Positions 48,189-60,448 are shown, numbered from the stretch's first letter. The stretch is DNA of 64,000 nucleotides from an uncultured Chloroflexia bacterium (GCA_963813535.1 CAWEZH010000002.1:1760001-1824000); one strand, 5' to 3'. Notes: a model not told the origin generated them from the letters alone. Translations and numbers: made by a program.

Positions 48189-48989
48189 ATGCACTCCACC
48201 TCACGCCGTCGGTGGCTGGCCGTCGCCATGCCCGCCGCACTGATCGCGGCCATCGCGATCACGGTCGTCGCCCCCACCGCGACCGGCACGTCTGCCTCGA
48301 CCGCCGAGTCATCCGTCATCGGATGGATCAACGCCGCGCGGTCGGCACGAGGCCTCGTCCCGCTCAGATATGACAGCGATCTCGCGTCGATCTCCGGGAT
48401 CCGCGCCAGCCGGATGGCGTCACGCAACGTGATGAGCCATACCGTCGGGGGCAACCTCACATCGCAGCTCAACGCCTATGGCGTGCAGTGGTTCCGCTAC
48501 GGCGAGGACATCGGCTGGTCGACCGCGTCGTGGCCGTCGACGTCGGCGAAGTCGATCTTCAATGCCTGGATGAGCAGCGCACCACACCGCGCGATGATCC
48601 TGAGCAACCGGTTCAACTACGTGGGCGTCGGGCTCGCCTATCGCTCGTCGGGTCACAGGACCTTCTCATCGGCGGTCTTCGCGGAGACGACCGACCACAC
48701 GAGGGCCGTCGCCCGGGTGACCCGCGCCACGCGATCCGGCAACGACGTCCGATGGTCGTGGAGCGGCTACGACCCGCGGCTGCAGACCCACACCGCCGGG
48801 CTGCGCAACTACGACGTGCAGTACCGCACGAATTACGGGGCGTGGCATCTGCTCCGGAACGACACGTCGCAGAGCTCGGTCACCATCTACAACAGGGGGA
48901 CCGGGACATACGCCGTCCGCGTGCGAGCCACCGACCGGCGTGGCAATGTGGGCGCATGGAGCAGCGAGGCTCGCATCCGGGTTCCCTGA
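48189..48989 (+). CDS. Secreted CAP/SCP domain protein with FN3-like C-terminus
   Basis: Signal peptide, INAARSARGL, GEDIG, WMSSAPHRAMIL, VGVG; YDVQYR...RVRATDRRGNVGAWS. Confidence 0.88.
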   Translation: MHSTSRRRWLAVAMPAALIAAIAITVVAPTATGTSASTAESSVIGWINAARSARGLVPLRYDSDLASISGIRASRMASRNVMSHTVGGNLTSQLNAYGVQWFRYGEDIGWSTASWPSTSAKSIFNAWMSSAPHRAMILSNRFNYVGVGLAYRSSGHRTFSSAVFAETTDHTRAVARVTRATRSGNDVRWSWSGYDPRLQTHTAGLRNYDVQYRTNYGAWHLLRNDTSQSSVTIYNRGTGTYAVRVRATDRRGNVGAWSSEARIRVP

Positions 48990-48996
48990 CCCGTCC

Positions 48997-50408
48997 ATGA
49001 GGCGGCACCCGTTTGCCGCCGTCAACCTGATCAGTGACCCGATCCACGGGTACATCGAGCTCACCAAGCGGCTGACGGCCGCCGAGTCGTCAGCCGCAGG
49101 TCTCCCGGCCGAGGACGTCGCCGAAGAGGACCTCCTCGACACGGCGTGGCTCCAGCGCCTTCGACGGATCAGCCAGCTGCAGAGTGCTCGGTGGGTCTTC
49201 CCGACCGCCGAGCATTCGCGCTTCACCCACGGTCTGGGCGTCATGCACGAGGCGGGCCTGTGGGCCCGCTCGCTCTATCCGAGCCTGCGCGCGGAGCTCG
49301 TGTCCGCGGGTGAGACCCCGATCCCCTCCGAGGGCCTGGTGACCGAGACGATGCGCATGGCCGGGCTGCTCCACGACGTCGGGCACGGGCCGTTCGCCCA
49401 CTTCTTCGACGACCACGTCCTGTCGGCGTTCGACGCACCCGATGATCCGCGCCGGCCCGACGCCAAGCGCCTCACCCACGAGGATCTCAGCGCCCGGATC
49501 ATCGGCGAGTCGGGCGACCTGCTGCGCGGGCTCCGACGCGCGCCGGGGGCGGTCGCCGAGCGCGACGCGCTAGCGGGACGATGAGGCGATCGACCCCGAC
49601 TGGGTCGCGTTCCTCATCGCCAAGCCTGCCCTCAGCGACCCGGGCATGCCGCGCTGGGTGCGCTGGCTGGCACCGCTGCTGTCTGGCGTGTTCACCGTCG
49701 ACAACCTCGACTACGTCCGGCGCGACGCGTACCTCACGGGGGTCACGGCGGGACCCGTCGACGTCGAGCGCCTGCGGCGCTACACGTTCATCGGCGCCGA
49801 GGGCCTGACGCTGTTCGAGCCCGGGCTCGGCGCCTTGGAGATGTTCCTGAGCTCCCGCCGGTTCATGTACCAGCAGGTGTACTTCCACCGGACGGTGCGG
49901 GCGATCGATCTCGATCTCGCGGACGTCTTCGGCCCGTCGATCGCGGCGATCTTCGGCGACGGCTCACCGGCCGACCGACTGCCGGCGTACGCCGACCTGG
50001 ACGAGTACGCACTCCTCCACCAGGCGGCGCGCTGGGCGCGCGGCCTCGACGTCGTCGACGCACGGGAGCGGTACTCCGGAGCCGGGTGACGGACGGGTGC
50101 AACGCCCGATCGCCGAAGCGTGGCGGGCGATCCTTCTCCGTCAGCCGACGTGGCGTGCGGAAGCCGAGGTCCGGTCGGAATACGAGGGCCGCGAGCCGCC
50201 GGCCCATGTCGTCGCGGCGCTCGGAGAGGCGGAGCCTGGTCGGGTCGCGATCGACCTGGCGGTCGTCGATGCGCGGCCCGCCGACGCGACCGCCACCGAC
50301 CGGCTGCTGGCCCTCGAAGGTCGCGACGGGCGGTCGATGTCGCTCGCCGCGGCGCTCGCCTCGATCCCGACGAACTGGCTGGTCGGCCGCCGCTACCGGC
50401 GGCGCTGA
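48997..50408 (+). CDS. HD-domain phosphohydrolase, SAMHD1-like dNTPase family (two frameshifts, ~49576 and ~50064)
   Basis: DPIHGYI, QRLRRISQL, EHSRFTH, LLHDVGHGPFAH, DNLDYVRRD, MYQQVYFH. Confidence 0.88.
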
Positions 50409-50418
50409 ACGGCGGCCA

Positions 50419-51339
50419 TCACGAGGGTCGAGGTGACGGCTGCGGACTCGTCTTGGGCTTCGGGGCGTGCTGGGGCAGCACGACCAGCGGGTCGATCCGG
50501 GCGATCTGGAAGGCCGGCACCTTCATCCGCTTCACGACGGCCGGGTCGATGGCGAACGTCGCGGTCTCGAGGGGGCTGAACAACCCGTAGTGGAGGTGGC
50601 AGCCGGATGCGCGACCGGTGGCACCCTCGAGACCGAGGAACTGGCCGGCCTTCACGTTCTGGCCCTTCTTGACGACGATCCTGCTGAAGTGGGCATAGAC
50701 ACTTCGGTAACCGTTGCCGTCGTCGATGACGACCGTGATCGGCAGCGTCTGCCACAGGTGCTTGCTATCGAGCCGATGGGTGTAGGGCTTCAGATCGCCG
50801 ACCCAGCCCATCGCCTGGTCGAACCGTCGGCCTGCCGCGACGACCCTGCCGGCATGCGCGGCGACCACCCGATCACCACAGAACGTCGCCAGGTCGATCC
50901 CGTCGTGGAAGCTCTTGCCCTCGACCAGTCGCGATCCCCACGGGGACGGACCGAAGGGCAGCGTCAGACGGCCGTGGGCCAGCGGCGACCGATAGCCCTC
51001 GAGCAACTCGGGCGCCACCGGGGTGGGTGCGAGCGACGGTGCCGAAACGCCGGGCGGCGACGGTCGTGCACTCGGGCGGACGACCGGCGCGGCCGGCGGG
51101 ACCGTCGTGAGCGCGGCGACCGGTTCGGGCGTCGCGATCGCACCCTGCACGTCGCCCGCCCTGCCGAATGGCCCGTTCGCGAGCGTCGACGCTATGGCCG
51201 CCGTGGCCGCCACGACCACGACGAGACTGGCAGCGCGGCGCACCCGACGTCGACGGCGACTGCCGTCGCGTTCATCGAGCGGGCGCGGGAGGTTGGCCAG
51301 AGGGCCCGGCTGGCGGCCGGTGTGACGGATCCCGGGCAT
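50419..51339 (-). CDS. M23 family metallopeptidase
   Basis: TM helix, HDGIDL, YAHF, GCHLHY. Confidence 0.9.
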   Translation of the reverse strand: MPGIRHTGRQPGPLANLPRPLDERDGSRRRRRVRRAASLVVVVAATAAIASTLANGPFGRAGDVQGAIATPEPVAALTTVPPAAPVVRPSARPSPPGVSAPSLAPTPVAPELLEGYRSPLAHGRLTLPFGPSPWGSRLVEGKSFHDGIDLATFCGDRVVAAHAGRVVAAGRRFDQAMGWVGDLKPYTHRLDSKHLWQTLPITVVIDDGNGYRSVYAHFSRIVVKKGQNVKAGQFLGLEGATGRASGCHLHYGLFSPLETATFAIDPAVVKRMKVPAFQIARIDPLVVLPQHAPKPKTSPQPSPRPS

Positions 51340-51371
51340 GGGCGGTCATGGTATGCGAACCTGACGTCGAT

Positions 51372-52163
51372 ATGGCCGAGAGCCCGATCCGACCGCCGCT
51401 CGACGCCCCGGCCTCGGCATACGACAGGCACTGGATCGCCGCGCATCTCGCCGAGGAGCGACGAGCAAGTTCCCTGCTCGGCGAGATCCGCGAAGTGGTC
51501 TTCGGTCTCCAGGACGGCCTGGTCTCGACGCTCGCTGTCGTCGCGACCGTCGCCGGTGCCACCGGAGGGGCATTCCCGGTCGTCGTCGCCGGCATCGCCA
51601 GCGCACTCGCCGGGGTCTTCTCGATGGCTGCCGGCGAGTACATCGGCAGCAAGAGCCAGCGCGAGATCTTCGACGCCCAGATCCACGAGGAGCGCCACGA
51701 GGTCGATGAGCGCCCGGGCGAGGCGGAGGCGGAGGTCGCCTTCATGCTCGCCGAGGAAGGGCTTGGCGATGAGGATGCGCAGCGCATCGCCGCCCTCATG
51801 GCTCGCCATCCCGAGGTGCTCCTTCGGACCATGGTGACCCGCGAGCTCGGCATCCAGGTCGACGACCGTGGAGGGACCGTGCTGCGCGGCGCCGTGTTCA
51901 TGGGGGCCGCCTTCGGCATCGGCGCGCTGGTGCCGATCCTCCCGTTCCTGCTGCTCCCGTTCTCCACGTCACTACCGGCGGCCGTGATCGCGACGGGCGC
52001 GGTCCTGTTCGGGATCGGCGTCGTGAAGAGTCGCTGGACGCACCGCTCTGCGGCCGCGTCGGGCCTGGAAGTGCTCGTACTCGCGGCCGTCGCGGGTGTC
52101 GCCGGCTACCTGTTCGGGACGGTCCTGCCGGAAATCCTGGGTGTCGCCGGGATCACCGGCTAG
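51372..52163 (+). CDS. VIT1/CCC1 family Fe/Mn transporter
   Basis: REVVFGLQDGLVS, SMAAGEYI, ELGI. Confidence 0.92.
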   Translation: MAESPIRPPLDAPASAYDRHWIAAHLAEERRASSLLGEIREVVFGLQDGLVSTLAVVATVAGATGGAFPVVVAGIASALAGVFSMAAGEYIGSKSQREIFDAQIHEERHEVDERPGEAEAEVAFMLAEEGLGDEDAQRIAALMARHPEVLLRTMVTRELGIQVDDRGGTVLRGAVFMGAAFGIGALVPILPFLLLPFSTSLPAAVIATGAVLFGIGVVKSRWTHRSAAASGLEVLVLAAVAGVAGYLFGTVLPEILGVAGITG

Positions 52164-54870
52164 GGGCGAGTCGCGCTCGAGCTGGCGCTGCGCCCACCCT
52201 GGCGGATCGCTGCCAGGACGCGGTCCGGCGTGGCCGGTACGACATCCATCCGGACGCCGGTCGCGTGGCGGATCGCGCCGAGGATCGCCGGTGCGGTCGG
52301 GATGAGGGCCGGCTCACCGACGCCCTTCGCGCCGAATGGCCCGGCCGGCTCGGCATCCTCCACGAGGATCGTCTCGATCGGCGGGATGTCGCCGATGGTC
52401 GGGATCAGGTAGTCGTGCAGGTTGTCGGTCCGGCCGGCCCGGTACTCCTCCATCAACGCGAACCCGAGGCCCTGGGCGATCCCGCCGTGGATCTGGCCCT
52501 CGACGAGCATCGGGTTGATGGCCCGACCGACGTCGTGCGCCGCGACGATCCGTCGGACGGACGTGGTGCCGAGCTCGAGGTCGACATCGACGACGGCGAT
52601 CTGCGCGCCGAACCCGTACGTCTCGTAGGGGATGCCCTGCCCGTCGGCATCGAGCGGCGTCGTCCGTGGATCGTAGCTCCCCTGCCCGACCAGGACGCAG
52701 CCGTCGGCGTCCTCGGGTAGCGCTCCGAGGTCCGGGCCGGCCATCTCGATCCGACGCAGCAGGTCGTCAGCCGCCAGCCGCGTCGCATTGCCCGACACGA
52801 ACGTCTGCCTCGACGCCGACGTCTTCCCGGCGTCGGCCGTACGGTCGGTGTCCCCGGTCACGAGATCGATCGTGGAGAGGGGGACGTCGAGTGCATCGGC
52901 CGCGATCTGACTCAAGATCGTCGACGAGCCCTGCCCGATATCCTGCGCGCCGCTGAACAGGACATAGCGACCATCGCGCCGGATGCCGATACGGATCGTC
53001 GATGGATTGGGCAGCGACGTGTTGCCGATGCCGTACCACATCGCCCCGATCCCGACGCCGCGCCGCGTGGGTCGGCCGGTCGCCGCCACCTCCGCATTCG
53101 AGCGTCGAGCGTCGTCGATCTCCTCCTGCCACGCCGGCCGCAGCGCCTCGAGGCACGGCGCCAGCCCGGCGCTGGCCTCCAGGACCTGGCCCGTGGCGGT
53201 CGTGGAACCGGCCCGCAGGACGTTCCGCAGGCGGATCTCGAGGCGGTCGAGACCGAGCTCCTCGGCGACATCGTCGATGAGCGCCTCGTGGGCGATCGCG
53301 GCCTGCGGGACGCCGAACCCGCGGAAGGCGCCACCGATCGGACCATTCGTGTAGATCGCGCGCGACGTGGCGCGCACCGCCGGCATGACGTAGGGGCCCG
53401 TCGCGTGCACGGGGACCCGGTTGGCCACGGTCGGTCCCCACGAGGCGTAGGCGCCCGTGTCGAAGTCGCCGTGGAAGTCGAAGGCGGTGAACCGACCGTC
53501 TGCGTCGGCACCGAGCGTGGCGGTCATCACGGCCGGGTGGCGCTTGGTCGTCGAACGCATCGATTCAGGACGCGTGTAGACGCATCGGACCGGTCGATCG
53601 AGCACCCACGCAGCGATCGCGACCAGCGGCTGGACCGCCATGTCGAGCTTGCCGCCGAACCCGCCACCACACGCCGTCGGTACGATGCGGACGCGCTCTG
53701 GAGCGATGCCCAGGACCAGCGCGACCTCGTCGCGGTCCATGTAGGGCGTCTGGGTCGAGACGACGACCGTGACCCGGTCACCTTCGCGCACCGCGTAGCC
53801 GGCTTCGGGCTCGATGTACGCGTGCTCGACGTGGCTCGTCCGGAACGTCCCGGTCGCGGTCGCTGACGAGCCGCGACAGGGCAGATGCGACGTCGCCGCG
53901 AGCGACCCGCCCGCTCGTCAGGACGTTGCCGGTCGACGCCTCGTGGAGCTGTCGCGCGCCGCCGGCGACGGCGTCGGCCGGGTCGATCAGCGGTTCGAGG
54001 GGTTCCCAGGCGATCGGCACCTCGTCGTCCGCGATGGCGGCGATCGTCGACGCGTCGCCGACCAGCGCCGCGACCGCCTCGCCGCGGTAGCGGACGTAGC
54101 CGTCGGCGAGCGCCGGCTGATCCTTGCCCGTCGCATAGATGCCGTAGCGGTTCTGGCCCGGGACATCGGCGGCGAGCAGGACCCGTTCGAGTCCGGGATG
54201 CGCGTCATGCAGCGTCGCCAGGTCGCCGACCGTGAACCGCGCGTGGGCGTGCGGCGAGCGCACCACCCGAAGATGCAGCACGCCGGCCGGGAGCACGATC
54301 CGCGCCGAACGCGCTGACGCCGGTGACCTGGTCGATCCCGTCGATGCGCGCGACGCGGGCACCGACCGCCGCGCCGGGTGGCGGGAGCGACGGCGCCTCG
54401 ACCCCATCGATCGACGTGACGGCGTCGATGATCTTGCGATAGCCGGTGCAGCGACACAGGACGCCGCCGAGCGCGGCCAAGACCTGGGCCTCGCCTGGCG
54501 CTGGTCGTGCGTCGAGCAATGCATCCGCGGCCATGAGCATGCCGGGTGTGCAGATCCCGCACTGTGCCCCGCCGGTCCGCACGAACGCGGCCTGGACGGG
54601 TGCCAGTTCGCCGTCCCGGGCCAGGCCCTCGACGGTCGCCACGTCGCGTCCGTCGACCTGGCCGAGGGGCACGAGACACGCGCACACCGGTTCGCCGTCG
54701 AGGCGCACCGTGCACGCCCCGCAGTCGCCGGCGTCACAGCCGACCTTCGTCCCGGTCATCCCGAGGTCATCCCGGAGGACGTCGCTCAGCCGCCGGATCG
54801 GATCGCCCGCCACGGCCACCTCCCGGCCGTTGACGAGAAAGGTCGTGGGGCGAGCGGCGACGTCGGTCAC
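52160..54870 (-). CDS. Xanthine-dehydrogenase-family molybdoprotein with fused 2x[2Fe-2S] domain, nicotinate dehydrogenase-like (frameshifts ~54300, ~53860)
   Basis: GCDAGDCGAC, QCGICTPG, CRCTGY, HAYIEPE, GGGFGGK, AFRGFGVPQ, WYGIGNTSLPNPS, GAKGVGE. Confidence 0.9.
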
Positions 54871-55703
54871 GCCAGGAGCTCCGCGACGGCGCGGCGGACC
54901 AGGGTCAGCGCCGCGTCGCGTCGATAGGTCCCGGTCCCACGGACGTCATCGATCGGCGTTAGGCCTGCGAGGTCGTCATCGACGATCCGTGCCGCCAGTG
55001 ACGGCGCCGCGACCTGACCGGCGAGGCGAGCCTCGACCGCCTCGACCCGCATCGGCACTTCGGAACAGGCGCCTACCACGATCCGTGCCGCTGCCACGCG
55101 CCCGCTCTGGTTGACGTCCACGACCGCGGCGATGCTGGCGATCGAGATCACGAGGTACTTCCGCGACCCGAGTTTGAGGAAGGTGGAGCGGGCGGTCGCC
55201 GATGGTTCGGGGACGATGATCGCCGTCACGAGTTCATCCCCGCGCCGGGCCGTCCTGCGATTGCCTTCCACGAAGTCGCCGACGGGCATCTCCCGCCGCC
55301 CGGCCCGTGAGGACAGCTCGACGCGCGCGTCGAGCGCCATCAGGTTCGGCAGCCCATCGGCCGCCGGCGACGCGTTGCACAGGTTGCCGACCACGGTCCC
55401 GCGATTCTGGATCTGGACCCCGCCGATCGAGCGCGCCGCGGCCTTCAGGCCATCGAAAGCCGCTGACAGCTCGGCGCGCACCAGGTCGGTCCAGGTGGCG
55501 AGGGCCGGGATCCGGACGACGCCGTCAGATATGGATATCGCGCGCAGCTCAGGCAGGGCGCTGACGTCGAGGACGTCATCCGCGATCGGTCGGCCGACGT
55601 TCGCGGGATACACGTCGGTCCCGCCGGCGAGCATCGTCCACGGCCGCTCAGCGAGCGCCCCGAGCGCCTCGTCGAGGCTGGTCGGTCGCAGGTAATCGGC
55701 CAT
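54867..55703 (-). CDS. FAD-binding subunit of the XDH-family molybdoenzyme
   Basis: YLRPTSLDEAL, AGGTD, QIQNRGTVVGNLCNASPAADG, PIDDVRGT. Confidence 0.92.
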   Translation of the reverse strand: MADYLRPTSLDEALGALAERPWTMLAGGTDVYPANVGRPIADDVLDVSALPELRAISISDGVVRIPALATWTDLVRAELSAAFDGLKAAARSIGGVQIQNRGTVVGNLCNASPAADGLPNLMALDARVELSSRAGRREMPVGDFVEGNRRTARRGDELVTAIIVPEPSATARSTFLKLGSRKYLVISIASIAAVVDVNQSGRVAAARIVVGACSEVPMRVEAVEARLAGQVAAPSLAARIVDDDLAGLTPIDDVRGTGTYRRDAALTLVRRAVAELLA

Positions 55704-55708
55704 GGCCG

Positions 55709-56692
55709 TCAGTCGTGCAGCCGCGGCAGGACGTCGGACGCGATGCGCTCGAGCGTCTCGGGGCTCCAGTCGAGCGGGTTGAGGATCACGTGCTCGACGC
55801 CACCGAGCGCCTCGATCTTGCCGCGGATCCGGTCGGCCAGTGCCTCGGCCTCGCCGAGCAGATAGAACTCCTGCCAGTAATCGAGGTCCATACCCGAGAA
55901 GACGCGGAACCTCGGGGCTGCACTCTCCGGCGATTCGCCGGGCCCGAGGACGTGGATGAAATTCGAGTAGACCTTGGTCATCTCGTCGGGGTCGCGCCCG
56001 AGGCCGGCCATCTCTTCCCGGATGATCGCCCAATCCCCGGCGACCATCTCGGCCGTCGCCGACGAGTGGGGTACCCACGTCGATGCGTACTTGGCGATGC
56101 GCCGGAGTACGGGCCGGATCGTATCGACCGACTGGCCGTAGATCTTCTCGGACGGCTGGGTCCCGCCGCCGATCCAGATCGGCGGATGCGGTCGCTGGGC
56201 CGGCTTCGGCTCGATCGTCAGGTGTTCGAACCGGTAGAACTGTCCCTCGTAGCTCACGTCGTCACCCGCCCACAACGCGGTGATCGCCTCGAGCATCTCG
56301 TTCATCCGGCGACCCCGCTCACGAAGCGGGATGCGCAGCGCCTCGAATTCGCCGGGGTGCCATCCGACACCGACCCCGAGGATCGAGCGTCCGCCGGACA
56401 GCACGTCGAGCGTCGCCCACTCCTTGGCGAACGCGACCGGATCGCGGAAGGGGAGCACCAGGACGAGGGTCCCGAGTCGGATCGTCCGGGTGACGCCGGC
56501 CAAGCCCGACAGCAACGACACCGGCTCCAGCCAAGTCGTTCGATAGGCCGGCGGCGCGACGAGCAGGTGGTCGATGAGGAGCGCGCTCTCGAAGCCGAGG
56601 TCCTCCGCCCGTCGCAGGTAGGCCCCCATGTCGGCAAGGCTCGCCGTCTCCGAACCGAGCGCGAAGCTGGGGAGCCGGAGGCCGAAGCGCAT
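55709..56692 (-). CDS. LLM-class flavin (possibly F420)-dependent oxidoreductase
   Basis: AEDLGFES...DH, TIRLGTLV, TLDVLSGGR..LGVGVGW, PPIWIGG. Confidence 0.88.
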   Translation of the reverse strand: MRFGLRLPSFALGSETASLADMGAYLRRAEDLGFESALLIDHLLVAPPAYRTTWLEPVSLLSGLAGVTRTIRLGTLVLVLPFRDPVAFAKEWATLDVLSGGRSILGVGVGWHPGEFEALRIPLRERGRRMNEMLEAITALWAGDDVSYEGQFYRFEHLTIEPKPAQRPHPPIWIGGGTQPSEKIYGQSVDTIRPVLRRIAKYASTWVPHSSATAEMVAGDWAIIREEMAGLGRDPDEMTKVYSNFIHVLGPGESPESAAPRFRVFSGMDLDYWQEFYLLGEAEALADRIRGKIEALGGVEHVILNPLDWSPETLERIASDVLPRLHD

Positions 56693-57876
56693 CAGTGACC
56701 GCCGCCGGCGACCGCGATGCCCTTGACGACCTCCGCCATCCGCGTCGCTGGGGCGGTGTTCCGGCTCCGGCCGATGAGCGGCGTCCCATCGACGAGCACC
56801 ATCGAGACGCCCGGGATGTCGCCGTTCGTCAATGCCTCCAGTGCGGTCGTGCCGACCGACCCGACCGGAGCATCGACGATGCACAGGTCGGCGGCCTTTC
56901 CCGGCGCGATCACGCCGGTGTCGAGCCGATGCACGCGGGCGGTGTTTCCGGTCGCGAACGCGACGACGGACTCGGGCGCAACGGCGCCGAGCGACGCGAG
57001 GTGGGCCATCAGCCGCAGGATGCCCAGCGGGATCACGCCCGTTCCGGACGGCGCGTCGTTGCCCAGGATCACGCGCCCGAGCGATCCGGCGTCCGCAGCC
57101 ATGCGCAGCGCGTAGAGCGCGGTCCGGCCGTTGCCGCAATGGACGAGCTCCAAGGCGATCCCCGTGTCGGCGGCGACGAGCCGGTCGATGTCCGATTCCG
57201 GCAACGAGGTCGTCCCGCCGTTGATGTGGCCGGCCACGTCCGGGTCGGCCTCGAGGACCACGTCGGCGCCGATCGCCCCCGACCCGGGTAGCGACGGACC
57301 ACCCGTATGGAACGTCGAGACCATGCCGTGTGCGCGGGCCCAGGCCACCATCGGCGCGGCATCCGCGCCGGACCTCACGGACCCGAGCCCGATCTCACCG
57401 ATCAGCGTGACGCCACCGGCGGCCATCTCGGCGAAGTCGGCCTCGACCAGTCCGTGCTCGAGGATCGGTGCTCCGGCCCGGACCTTCACGCCACCCGGCC
57501 GGAACGTGGCATACGCACGGGCGATGGCGATGGCCAGCGCCTTCAGGCCGACGATGTCCTTGGGCCGGCCCGGCACGTGCGGCTCACCGGCCGAGATCAT
57601 CGTCGTGACCCCACCGTGGAGCGACGACTCGATGAAGTCGATCGTCCGCTGGCGCGGCGTGAAGTCGCCGACCGTCGGGTGCGCGTGTGAGTCGATGAGG
57701 CCGGGTATGACCGTCGTCCCGCCCGCGTCGATGACGACGTCGGCCGACTCGCTGTCGAGGTTGCGTCCCACCGCCTCGATTCGACCGTCGATGATCGATA
57801 TCGAGTCGCCGTCGAGCAGCGGCGCGTCGATGTCGCCCGAGACGACCTGGCCGATGCCGGTGATCAGCGTCCGCAC
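56692..57876 (-). CDS. Enamidase-like amidohydrolase
   Basis: PGLIDSHAH, GDFTPRQ, LHGGVTTMISAG, PGRPKD, HTGGPS, HINGG, NDAPSGTG closely match the remembered Eubacterium barkeri enamidase pattern. Confidence 0.85.
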   Translation of the reverse strand: MRTLITGIGQVVSGDIDAPLLDGDSISIIDGRIEAVGRNLDSESADVVIDAGGTTVIPGLIDSHAHPTVGDFTPRQRTIDFIESSLHGGVTTMISAGEPHVPGRPKDIVGLKALAIAIARAYATFRPGGVKVRAGAPILEHGLVEADFAEMAAGGVTLIGEIGLGSVRSGADAAPMVAWARAHGMVSTFHTGGPSLPGSGAIGADVVLEADPDVAGHINGGTTSLPESDIDRLVAADTGIALELVHCGNGRTALYALRMAADAGSLGRVILGNDAPSGTGVIPLGILRLMAHLASLGAVAPESVVAFATGNTARVHRLDTGVIAPGKAADLCIVDAPVGSVGTTALEALTNGDIPGVSMVLVDGTPLIGRSRNTAPATRMAEVVKGIAVAGGGH

Positions 57877-57886
57877 GATCGATGCC

Positions 57887-58459
57887 TCAGCGCAGGCCGT
57901 CCTCGCCCACGGCGTCGGATGCCGCGAGCCCTCCGATCCGTGCATGTGGCCGGCCGGCATTGGTGACAGCCAGCGCGAGCAGCAGCTCGTCGGCCCCCGG
58001 CGCGTCCGGTACGGAGATGGTGACCGCATCGAAATGGGAGCGGACGAGCATCGCCTTGATGTGGTGGACCGGGATGTCGAGCGTTGCGCCCATCGCGGCA
58101 CGCTTCTTGACCGACGGCAGGATCGACACGCCGTTCGTGCGGGTACGGGTCGGCTGCCCGAACTTGGGGTGAAGGACCGCGGCGACGTGCTCGAGCTCGC
58201 CGTGCTCACCGACGATGCCGCCCTTGCCATACGCCTCGACCGGTCCTTCGAGCGCCTCCTGGCAGCGACGGGTCAGCTCGTCGCCGAGGTACTCGCCGAA
58301 GTCGATGAGCTCCGCCAGGTCATCCGACCACGTGCCGGCATACGGGTTGGTGCAGATGACCGCGACGGCGACGCGCCGAAGCGGACGCTCGAGATCGCGC
58401 TCGCCATCGACCACGATCTCCTCGCGGAACGTCGCCCATTTGCGGATCCTGATGGCCAC
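57887..58459 (-). CDS. DUF1185 (amino acid synthesis family) protein
   Basis: NPYAG, YGKGGIVG, GELEH, RSHFD, PDAP, GRPHARIGG. Confidence 0.88.
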   Translation of the reverse strand: MAIRIRKWATFREEIVVDGERDLERPLRRVAVAVICTNPYAGTWSDDLAELIDFGEYLGDELTRRCQEALEGPVEAYGKGGIVGEHGELEHVAAVLHPKFGQPTRTRTNGVSILPSVKKRAAMGATLDIPVHHIKAMLVRSHFDAVTISVPDAPGADELLLALAVTNAGRPHARIGGLAASDAVGEDGLR

Positions 58460-58560
58460 GGTGCTCCTCCTCCGACCAGTCCGCCGTCGCTCCCTACCCG
58501 CACAGACTAGAATGTCCACGCCAACGGCCGGTGGCAAACCGACCTGGCGAGGATGGTCGC

Positions 58561-59355
58561 GTGGAAGAATCACACGCTGATTCCCGAAGGGCGCTCGTGC
58601 TCCACGATCGATCGATGGTGGTCGATCTCATCCAGCTCACGCTGAATCACGGCCTGTTCATCGTGAGTGCGGCCCGGGACCTCGCCGAGGCACAGGCGAT
58701 CATCGCTCGATGGCGTCCGCACATCGGCGTCGTCGACATGGACCATGCCGACAGCGCGCGATTGCTGCGTGTGCTCGGCGTCTCGAGCACCCTGGACAGG
58801 AGCGTGACGCCGGTCCTCGGCCTGACGCGTCGCGGCGACCTCTCCACCAAACTCCGCGCCTTCGATCTGGGCGTGGACGACATCCTGACGGTGCCCTTCT
58901 CGCCGGAGGAGCTGCTGGCTCGGTGCGTCGTCATCGCTCGGCGTTCGACGGGGAATGAGCGGCCGATCGTGCCGACGATCACCATCGGCGAGATCGAGAT
59001 CGACATCGTCAATCGACAGGTTCGAGCGGGGGACTCGGTCATCCACCTGAGCGGGATCGAGCAAAGCCTGCTGTACCTCCTCGCGAGTCGGAGCGGCCGC
59101 GTGCTCACGCGCGACGACATCCTGGACGCGATCTGGGGGACGGATTTCGTCGCCGAAAGCAACATCGTCGATCGCCACATCCGGAGTCTGCGCATCAAGC
59201 TCCAGAACGACTACCGGCACCCTCGCTTCATCGCGACCGTCCCCGGTGTCGGATACCGGTTCATCCCGACCTTCTCGAACCAGGGATGGCAGGACGGTGT
59301 GGCCGCCGGTGGAGGAGATCCCGAGTCTTCCACAGGAGATGACGAGTCGTCATGA
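58561..59355 (+). CDS. Orphan OmpR-family response regulator with atypical receiver
   Basis: wHTH LTRDDIL..IWG...SNIVDRHIRSLR...TVPGVGYRF; receiver has LHD and LTVPF. Confidence 0.88.
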   Translation: MEESHADSRRALVLHDRSMVVDLIQLTLNHGLFIVSAARDLAEAQAIIARWRPHIGVVDMDHADSARLLRVLGVSSTLDRSVTPVLGLTRRGDLSTKLRAFDLGVDDILTVPFSPEELLARCVVIARRSTGNERPIVPTITIGEIEIDIVNRQVRAGDSVIHLSGIEQSLLYLLASRSGRVLTRDDILDAIWGTDFVAESNIVDRHIRSLRIKLQNDYRHPRFIATVPGVGYRFIPTFSNQGWQDGVAAGGGDPESSTGDDESS

Positions 59356-59385
59356 CGAGGGGCGCATGGCGGCACAGAGTAGTCT

Positions 59386-59446
59386 GAGGCACCCGCTGCG
59401 GAGTGGTGTCTCGTGAAGGGGGCGGCGCCACTCCGCGCGTGCCCTC
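59386..59446. terminator. Long hairpin between convergent genes
   Basis: GAGGCAC/GTGCCCTC outer and GCGGAGTGGTGTC/GGCGCCACTCCGC inner stems. Confidence 0.4.
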
Positions 59447-59491
59447 TCCGACGGTCGCGGGGCGGGACTCCCGACGACCACCTGCAGCTGG

Positions 59492-60448
59492 TCAGGCGGT
59501 GATCGCCACCGGGCCACGCAGCCGCGCCAGGATCTCGCTCAGGCTCGCCTCGGCCATCCCGACGACCTGGTCGGCGGCGCCGTAGTAGACCAGCAGTCGC
59601 TCACCATCGTCGTCGAGCGTCCAGCCGCACGGGAACACGACCCGCCCGACATCCCCGATGATCTCGTATGGTGCCGCGGGCCCGAAGGCCCACTCGTCCA
59701 TCCGACCCACGACCACGCTGGGGTCATCGAGATCGAGGAGCGCGAACCCAGCCCGATAGATGGGTCCGTCCGAGGTCGTATGTACGCCGTGATACATCAC
59801 GAGCCAACCGGCCGACGTCTCCAATGGCGGCGGCCCCAGACCGATCTTCCCGGCATCCCACCAGGCGCCGTCACGCGCCTCGAGCAACAGGGTGTGATCG
59901 CCCCAATGCCGCAGGTCCGGTGAGAACGACAGCCACATGTGCGCGCCGCCGCGCAGCGGGGACGGTCGATGGATCATCGCCCAGCGGCCGTCGAAGCGGC
60001 GCGGGAACAACGCCGCGTCCTTGTCCTCGGGCGGCATCACCGGCCCCAGACGCCGCACCGTATGGAAGTCTCGCGTCATCGCGAGCGACACGAGGGGGCC
60101 ACGTCGGCTGTACGCGGTGTAGGCGATCGCCCACTCTTCGAGCTCGGGCAGCCACGTCAGCCGCGGATCCTCGCAGCCCCAGATCTCCTCTGGATAGTGC
60201 TCGACGTCGGGTCGCAGCAGTGGCTCCGGATCGAACCCCCAGTCCGCGACGCCATCCGGACTTCTCGCGACATGGAGCGCGGAGATGCCCCGCATGTCCT
60301 CGATGCGTGTCAGCAGGATGGTCTCGTTCCCGACGCGAGCCGCCCCAGGGTTGAAGACGGAGTTGGCGGGGTAGGGAACGTCAGCAGCGGTGAGGATCGG
60401 GTTGGCGGGGGAACGTTCGAATAGCGTGGCGCTCTTCGGACCCGTCAC
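59492..60448 (-). CDS. GH130 (PH1107-like) glycosidase/phosphorylase
   Basis: NPIL, VFNPGA, GCEDPR, DKDAALFP, HRP, KIGLG, YHGV, VVFPCG, YYGAAD. Confidence 0.92.
   Translation of the reverse strand: MTGPKSATLFERSPANPILTAADVPYPANSVFNPGAARVGNETILLTRIEDMRGISALHVARSPDGVADWGFDPEPLLRPDVEHYPEEIWGCEDPRLTWLPELEEWAIAYTAYSRRGPLVSLAMTRDFHTVRRLGPVMPPEDKDAALFPRRFDGRWAMIHRPSPLRGGAHMWLSFSPDLRHWGDHTLLLEARDGAWWDAGKIGLGPPPLETSAGWLVMYHGVHTTSDGPIYRAGFALLDLDDPSVVVGRMDEWAFGPAAPYEIIGDVGRVVFPCGWTLDDDGERLLVYYGAADQVVGMAEASLSEILARLRGPVAITA

Follow-up and report, generated by a model that had tools for sequence, protein, structure and literature searches.

A candidate LLM class oxidoreductase in place of 6-hydroxynicotinate reductase in a predicted nicotinate catabolic operon of an uncultured Chloroflexia bacterium

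The fermentation of nicotinate by Eubacterium barkeri, as reportedly described by Alhapel et al. 2006, is said to have an upper pathway made up of NdhFSLM, Hnr and Ena, with the nicotinate dehydrogenase reportedly built from four subunits. Passages of a further paper (PMC3511419) place a reductive route via 1,4,5,6-tetrahydro-6-oxonicotinate (THON) both in E. barkeri and in the aerobic Azorhizobium, and describe a conserved proteobacterial cluster in which a homologue of hnr, the gene for 6-hydroxynicotinate reductase, is found with the genes that encode the initial three steps of nicotinate catabolism. The operon considered here appears to be a variant of these systems. It lies in a window of 64,000 nucleotides (GCA_963813535.1 CAWEZH010000002.1:1760001-1824000), which is the whole stretch of DNA that was analysed, from an uncultured Chloroflexia bacterium of soil, and it consists of five genes on the minus strand in the order DUF1185, enamidase, a luciferase-like (LLM class) oxidoreductase, the flavin adenine dinucleotide (FAD) subunit of a molybdenum hydroxylase and the fused FeS-Mo subunit of the same enzyme. 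The operon is taken to cover the upper reactions of a reductive pathway for nicotinate, up to the opening of the ring, with the oxidoreductase (hereafter LLM) replacing Hnr, a reading to which a probability of roughly 0.55 is given on the strength of sequence comparisons. The genome has a size of 3.28 Mb in 3 contigs with 69.5% G+C and is 92.9% complete, the window being positions 1760001-1824000 of the second contig (C2), and the closest named protein relatives are labelled Candidatus Limnocylindrales or Chloroflexota by their source databases.

As in E. barkeri, the route would be to hydroxylate, reduce and hydrolyse, the enamidase is a close homologue of the solved enzyme, and the hydroxylase is a molybdenum enzyme of the XDH family with FAD and 2Fe-2S modules. 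Unlike in E. barkeri, there is neither an Hnr nor an ApbE-like gene, with the TIM-barrel LLM in their place, the hydroxylase has two genes (FAD and fused FeS-Mo) rather than four subunits, and no downstream fermentation genes are near the operon. The clusters of the Azorhizobium/Bradyrhizobium type, as far as passages of PMC3511419 describe them, share with it the enamidase, DUF1185 and the Mo hydroxylase, which in them serve the initial three reactions by way of THON. Identity to some of these clusters reaches 60-72% for the Mo, FAD and FeS parts. They differ from the operon in having Hnr, the ApbE-like gene, a Liv-type ABC transporter, a MarR/TetR regulator and, in many cases, an FNR-like reductase, none of which is present here, and they usually carry two copies of DUF1185 where there is one here.

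The proposed substrate of the LLM, 6-hydroxynicotinate, is an alpha,beta-unsaturated lactam. It would be produced from nicotinate by the FAD and FeS-Mo hydroxylase, a step assigned from homology. The LLM would then use F420H2 to put a hydride on C4 of the 6-oxo-1,6-dihydropyridine ring whilst C5 is protonated, with saturation of C4=C5 giving THON, the substrate of the enamidase. This second step is deduced from gene displacement, as elsewhere it is carried out by the Fe-S flavoenzyme Hnr together with the ApbE-like gene, to which roughly every second Hnr locus adds an FNR-like gene. The enamidase, for which the homology is strong, would finally split the cyclic enamide into 2-formylglutarate and ammonia, and DUF1185, which is part of both LLM-type and Hnr-type clusters, would have an accessory role.

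The chemistry proposed for the LLM has precedent in the LLHT enzymes (the picrate reductase Fht, the imine reductases Apd6/Fps, and Mer), with which it shares fold and superfamily. Passages of a review (PMC8498797) describe LLHT-family F420H2 enzymes that transfer hydride to the aromatic ring of picrate and that reduce cyclic imines, as well as the reduction of enones and enoates by F420, so that hydride from F420H2 is delivered to an electron-poor ring carbon or a conjugated double bond. The same passages contain no pyridone or nicotinate reduction, the string 'nicotin' there referring to nicotinamide cofactors (PMC8498797). Unlike the LLHT members, the LLM is only 16-24% identical to any solved one. 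An analogy, and only that, can also be drawn with reductive pyrimidine catabolism by dihydropyrimidine dehydrogenase and dihydropyrimidinase, in which a conjugated C=C bond of a lactam ring is likewise reduced before a cyclic amidohydrolase from the superfamily of the enamidase opens the ring; the enamidase has weak matches to hydantoinase and dihydropyrimidinase, whereas substrate, reductase family and products all differ.

The enamidase matches the E. barkeri enamidase in the PDB (2VUN) by phmmer with an E value of 1.1e-131 and 443 bits over residues 2-383 of 394, the second-best PDB match having an E value of 2e-6, its close relatives are named 'enamidase' in their source databases, and in the enamidase alignment (A1) the His and Asp columns are invariant. 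It is also 54-59% identical to enamidases from Hnr-type clusters and is predicted to hydrolyse THON. The accompanying hydroxylase has all the modules of the XDH family, with parts that are 55-72% identical to their counterparts in Hnr-type clusters. Its FAD subunit has XdhB-like best matches in NCBIfam, every one of them below cut-off, and is 46-60% identical to the FAD subunits of several Hnr-type clusters, whilst the C-terminal part of its Mo subunit is 58-72% identical to the Mo subunits of six Hnr-type loci. The two-gene enzyme is presumed to be a nicotinate hydroxylase.

In order to recognise Hnr, open reading frames (ORFs) from 100 enamidase loci and from the window flank were clustered, and a family of about 500 residues present in 41 loci was taken as Hnr. 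This family has no Pfam or NCBIfam match at the thresholds used, and for its close relatives NCBI, UniRef and JGI give the names '6-hydroxynicotinate reductase' or 'hnr'. The LLM, a TIM barrel of PF00296, is not homologous to Hnr with its ~500 residues and Fe-S motifs, and is thus an analogue of Hnr and not a member of its family. A tblastn search of the genome with the 41 Hnr proteins returned only one match, of 48 residues, to a ferredoxin (Fe-S) motif. An Hnr profile of 8 rows was also run against ten LLM-type genomes (the present one, G000, with G124, G261, G221, G373 and G425-G429), and in 10/10 gave only ferredoxin-motif matches of 15-23 bits at profile positions 2-58. The claim in the original prediction that no hnr is present therefore holds by both searches, not only within the window but across the genome, at 93% completeness.

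Where Hnr does occur, it is nearly always beside an ApbE-like gene of about 300 residues (NF003322, with a weak Pfam ApbE match), as in loci L076 and L116 and 33 further loci, and the product of this gene may be a flavin transferase needed for Hnr maturation. In 21 Hnr loci there is also an FNR-like reductase, through which NAD(P)H is likely to enter. One unusual Hnr of 977 residues was seen at L036:3269-6202 on the minus strand (genome G186), in which a GltD-like NAD(P)H/Fe-S/FAD module of ~430 residues is inserted, placed between Hnr residues ~184 and ~150-499; the same cluster also has a nicotinamidase-like isochorismatase, an SSF transporter and an aldehyde dehydrogenase.

The distribution of the two reductases was surveyed in the 100 enamidase loci, 20 of which are from Chloroflexota and 80 from named public genomes. 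LLM without Hnr was found in 11 loci, Hnr without LLM in 46 and both together in none, with a different LLM (LLM-B) in 7 and neither gene in 36; for the 58 loci whose flanks are both 4 kb or longer the corresponding counts are 7 with LLM, 32 with Hnr, 0 with both, 5 with LLM-B and 14 with neither. The two genes are thus mutually exclusive in enamidase clusters across the survey. The conservation of the LLM points the same way, since it adjoins the enamidase in 11 of the 100 loci and is kept in all six of the Chloroflexota genomes, out of 401, that have a close enamidase. Its orthologues in these genomes (73-100% identity) are found in exactly those six, where the enamidase is at least 69% identical, and each adjoins the enamidase; the next LLM matches in the 401 genomes are only 36-39% identical. 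It is the most conserved protein of the operon among relatives, at 67-88% identity, and is more conserved than the enamidase in 11/11 LLM loci. Taken with the absence of Hnr, exclusivity and conservation support the earlier proposal of a non-orthologous replacement, as far as comparative genomics can indicate.

The trio of enamidase, DUF1185 and LLM is not confined to Chloroflexota, as it is also found in three Methylomirabilota/Rokubacteria genomes in which the LLM is 67-73% identical. The gene order there is enamidase, DUF1185, LLM. The position of the LLM between the two flanking steps, which had been put forward as functional evidence, was for this reason rejected. In a FastTree phylogeny of the enamidases (101 rows, midpoint-rooted), those of LLM-type loci fall in one clade of 15 rows with an SH-like support of 98, nested among Hnr-type enamidases; 12 of the 15 rows are LLM-type, and in two of the remaining three the flank that would matter is truncated. 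The tree shows what was essentially one displacement event, kept over a long divergence and common to Limnocylindrales-like Chloroflexota and Methylomirabilota.

Two other arrangements were seen among the enamidase loci. In a distant enamidase-like clade (41-44% identical), LLM-B lies within 3 kb in 7/9 loci (L042-L050, with LLM-B in L043-L049) and is mostly adjacent; its best matches are of the F420 type (TIGR03842, Mer), all of them below cut-off. This looks like a second pairing of an LLM with a cyclic amidohydrolase, from a separate LLM lineage. In the Kaistia and Bosea loci L085, L114 and L143, which may be a third variant, neither Hnr nor LLM is found in the surrounding 10 kb, and the enamidase is accompanied by VIT1, a Pyr_redox_3 flavoprotein, a ketopantoate-reductase-like gene and a pair of DUF1185 genes.

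The cofactor of the LLM is probably F420. It scores 202.1 bits against TIGR03619 (F420-dependent LLM class oxidoreductase, Rv2161c family), for which the curated cut-off is 166.9, and its close relatives carry the identical NCBI name. The genome itself encodes cofD (297 bits) and cofE (248 bits), each above cut-off and adjacent to one another, and cofE was found in 5/5 other LLM-type genomes (4 above cut-off and 1 cut at a contig end) compared with 1/5 of the Hnr type. The assignment of F420 is in keeping with family membership, with cofD and cofE in the genome, and with the distribution of cofE between the two types of genome. At E <= 1e-40, public data contain 1102 cluster representatives for this LLM. 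The present genome has 23 matches to the LLM family, and LLM paralogues are found on the flanks of the cofD-cofE pair (C2:1316047-1318371).

An alternative that concerns the hydroxylase, and not the LLM, is that the operon is decaying in this strain, the ability to hydroxylate nicotinate having been lost. As assembled, the FeS-Mo gene runs through three reading frames with its domains split over three ORFs, something the original prediction had overlooked. Alignment with two genus-mates shows the cause to be two single-base insertions, near 54292 and 53874. Decay could be favoured by the occurrence of two insertions within one gene of 2.7 kb, neither of them within a long homopolymer, and by the fact that rpoB, rpoC, dnaE, polA, gyrA and uvrA all have long open frames. 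Against this, the three-frame translation has no stop or lesion beyond the two bases, and the gene is a single uninterrupted ORF in 5/5 family-mates. For a genome-wide check, 456 ORFs were taken from two genus-mates (180 residues or longer, with coding-like GC3 and GC2, that is G+C at third and second codon positions), and best matches of at least 65% identity were kept. This covered 212 segments and 254 kb, in which 7 genes had frame junctions, 9 in total and each of them net +1, and in which another gene, of 1.1 kb, has two junctions as the Mo gene does; a smaller initial sample had 3 of ~42 genes affected, and a tenth +1 frameshift was found in an FGD-like LLM gene elsewhere in the genome. 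The rate is about 1 per 28 kb of coding sequence. At this rate six intact long housekeeping genes are to be expected, and they were set aside as an undiscriminating gauge of error; a common 'TCG' context beside the inserted base at four of the sites was also discarded, such a motif being too frequent in DNA of 70% G+C.

Metagenome contigs bear on the same question. At 53874 they have one base fewer in 3/3 covering runs (X1, X2 and X3), and at 54292 in 1/2 runs (X1), with X3 covering that site and having no contig with the deletion, which is a point in favour of decay. The contigs are those of relatives 90-99% alike with piecemeal cover, and as every public run holds <= 0.31 of the operon's words none is established as the source sample, so the contigs cannot prove what the source reads contain. 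That ten out of ten frameshifts are in the +1 direction suggests a systematic consensus (insertion) error in the assembly. With relatives intact as well, both Mo-gene frameshifts are very likely assembly errors, decay is correspondingly unlikely, and the bacterium itself probably has an unbroken operon.

It could also be that the LLM acts after ring opening, as an F420-dependent reductase or dehydrogenase on 2-formylglutarate or glutarate semialdehyde, and that the ring is reduced by an unlinked ene-reductase of the OYE or FDOR type. Several characterised F420-dependent LLMs do act on alcohol or carbonyl groups, and the LLM has PDB matches that include FGD1, FGD2 and hydroxymycolate dehydrogenase. 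The aldehyde dehydrogenase of L036 and the ketopantoate-reductase-like gene of L085 further show that a downstream redox step can be clustered with an enamidase. This would leave ring reduction without any candidate in 10/10 LLM-type genomes lacking Hnr, however, and the genes that are missing in comparison with Hnr-type clusters are Hnr and the ApbE-like and FNR-like genes rather than an aldehyde enzyme, which makes a downstream role quite unlikely.

Another suggestion is that the operon serves some N-heterocycle other than nicotinate, perhaps a related pyridine carboxylate, by the same logic of hydroxylation, reduction and hydrolysis, with the LLM reducing that ring. The LLM-type enamidases do form a clade of their own, and the hydroxylase in the Methylomirabilota loci is 30-31% identical or missing nearby (L067, L068 and L074). 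The match of the enamidase to the THON-hydrolysing 2VUN, its identity to Hnr-type enamidases and that of the Mo subunit to those of six Hnr-type clusters all speak for nicotinate instead, as does the nesting of the LLM-type clade among Hnr-type enamidases in the midpoint-rooted tree, and a different heterocycle is considered very unlikely. That the LLM is instead a two-component monooxygenase dependent on reduced flavin mononucleotide (FMNH2), of the RutA, SfnG or SsuD kind, and oxygenates the ring or an intermediate is highly improbable, as despite SfnG, RslO1, SsuD and RutA being among its top Foldseek and PDB sequence matches the FMN-type NCBIfam models score far below their cut-offs (SfnG 81/383, SsuD 52/518 and RutA 35/498 bits) where TIGR03619 is passed, the domain annotation of the operon contains no flavin reductase gene, and cofE is present in 6/6 LLM-type genomes checked.

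Several points weigh against a replacement of Hnr by an F420-dependent LLM. The AF2 model of the LLM is a TIM barrel with a pLDDT of 86.8, and Foldseek matches to it (TM 0.65-0.79, identity 16-24%) rank FMN monooxygenases (SfnG, RslO1 and RutA) and F420 enzymes (Mer, FGD1 and FGD2) alike, so that the fold search leaves the cofactor unsettled. TIGR03619 was itself defined by comparative genomics, and no characterised member of it surfaced in the searches made. The biosynthesis of F420 is covered only in part: whereas cofD and cofE are present above their cut-offs, there are 0 matches in the genome to cofG and cofH, which encode the FO synthase, and cofH is found in 0/31 genomes of the family. 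The lineage may import FO or make it by other means. The genome is only 93% complete, and as assembled its Mo gene is twice frameshifted. With neither gene nearby in 36/100 loci, clustering of the reductase with the enamidase is not obligatory, and as the LLM-type enamidases fall in a single clade the exclusivity amounts to about one evolutionary event and not 11.

The original prediction had also offered oxygen tolerance as the motive for the replacement. This is unsupported because Hnr clusters abound in aerobes, being common in Bradyrhizobium, Acidovorax, Variovorax and Aquabacter. Searches of the literature found no paper combining F420 with 6-hydroxynicotinate, and none combining F420, nicotinate, luciferase-like and catabolism; papers on enamidase or tetrahydro-6-oxonicotinate had no such enzyme in their titles or the openings of their abstracts, with terms searched in the text of PMC3511419 only.

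The first gene of the operon, DUF1185, scores 211.9 bits against PF06684 (gathering score 27) and matches the structural-genomics entries 2QTP (E 3e-49) and 3BYQ (E 1e-25) in the PDB. In passages of the paper on these structures (PMC2954203) a role in 'amino-acid metabolism' is deduced from neighbouring Liv-type ABC genes, and according to passages of PMC3511419 such Liv-type neighbours belong to nicotinate clusters. DUF1185 is found in 11/11 LLM-type and 43/46 Hnr-type enamidase loci. As the family tracks enamidase clusters in this way, its Pfam name of 'amino acid synthesis' looks like an artefact of context.

The features of the operon are given in Table 1; their content, order, coordinates and common strand agree with those first proposed, both by ORF positions and by domain matches. 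The genes are tightly packed: DUF1185 and the enamidase are 10 nt apart, the start of the LLM overlaps the stop of the enamidase by 1 nt (TGATG), 5 nt separate the LLM from the FAD subunit, and the last two genes overlap at GTGA. DUF1185 has a GTG start, which is preceded by GGAGGAGGAG. The start of a divergent OmpR-type response regulator is 72 nt away from that of DUF1185, and this is a possible candidate for a regulator of the operon.

Table 1. Positions of the operon genes, the divergent regulator and the +1 frameshifts (window numbering unless a contig, C2 or C3, of the genome is named)
Feature	Position	Strand	Evidence
DUF1185 / AA_synth, 190 aa, first operon gene	57887..58459	-	PF06684 E 6e-63, full profile
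Enamidase homologue (amidohydrolase), 394 aa	56692..57876	-	2VUN match E 1.1e-131
LLM oxidoreductase, 327 aa, TIGR03619 / Rv2161c family	55709..56692	-	PF00296 E 5e-49
FAD-binding subunit, XDH-family molybdenum hydroxylase, 278 aa	54867..55703	-	FAD_binding_5 E 6e-39, CO_deh_flav_C E 3e-16
Fused [2Fe-2S]-molybdopterin subunit, ~900 aa if read through	52160..54870	-	Fer2/Fer2_2, Ald_Xan_dh_C, MoCoBD_1, MoCoBD_2
First +1 frameshift site	54288..54298	-	One base more than in genus-mates L031, L032 (DNA alignment)
Second +1 frameshift site	53870..53878	-	DNA alignment with genus-mates L031, L032
OmpR-type response regulator, divergent from operon	58531..59355	+	Trans_reg_C E 5e-23, Response_reg E 2e-7
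+1 frameshifts, whole genome (G000)	C2:115405, 142680, 142849, 696415, 1875308, 1876919; C3:98864; C3:933421-933464; window 53874, 54292		Genus-mate proteins or family models

The flanks are unrelated to the operon, comprising a VIT1-family gene, an M23 peptidase, the OmpR-type regulator, a GH130 phosphorylase, glycosyltransferases, and WYL and HD proteins, so that the operon stands by itself; annotation of the flanks in the window found no transporter and no downstream pathway or fermentation genes beside it, and a scan of 51000-59600 found no promoters or terminators. The VIT1-family gene (window 51168-52163, plus strand) converges on the Mo gene with both ending at one point, and a VIT1 gene is also present in the Kaistia-type enamidase clusters. 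Further along on the plus strand, an HD-domain ORF (48940-49584) adjoins an 'HD associated region' ORF in another frame (49646-50089), and the pair may be one further split gene.

Taken as a whole, the replacement of Hnr is plausible and well supported by comparative genomics, with the activity, cofactor and substrate of the LLM being predicted, and the operon is plausibly a new variant of a known pathway that holds a candidate new enzyme for a known step. A broader and distinctly tentative idea is that the LLM clade is the first F420H2-dependent pyridone-ring reductase, one hydride-transfer enzyme doing the work of an Fe-S system that takes three genes (those for Hnr, the ApbE-like protein and the FNR-like electron feeder), and that together with the LLM-B pairs it belongs to a wider module of F420-LLM plus cyclic amidohydrolase for the opening of N-heterocycles in Chloroflexota and Methylomirabilota, in which DUF1185 might handle the released enamine or imine. 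If the LLM does reduce 6-hydroxynicotinate, annotation would need correction, as these organisms would be scored as having an incomplete nicotinate pathway by tools based on hnr. The ene-reduction of a pyridone would be a new type of reaction for the LLHT family, offering a simple, single-subunit and Fe-S-free biocatalyst for the reduction of 2-pyridones, and F420 would gain a defined catabolic role in abundant uncultured lineages of soil.

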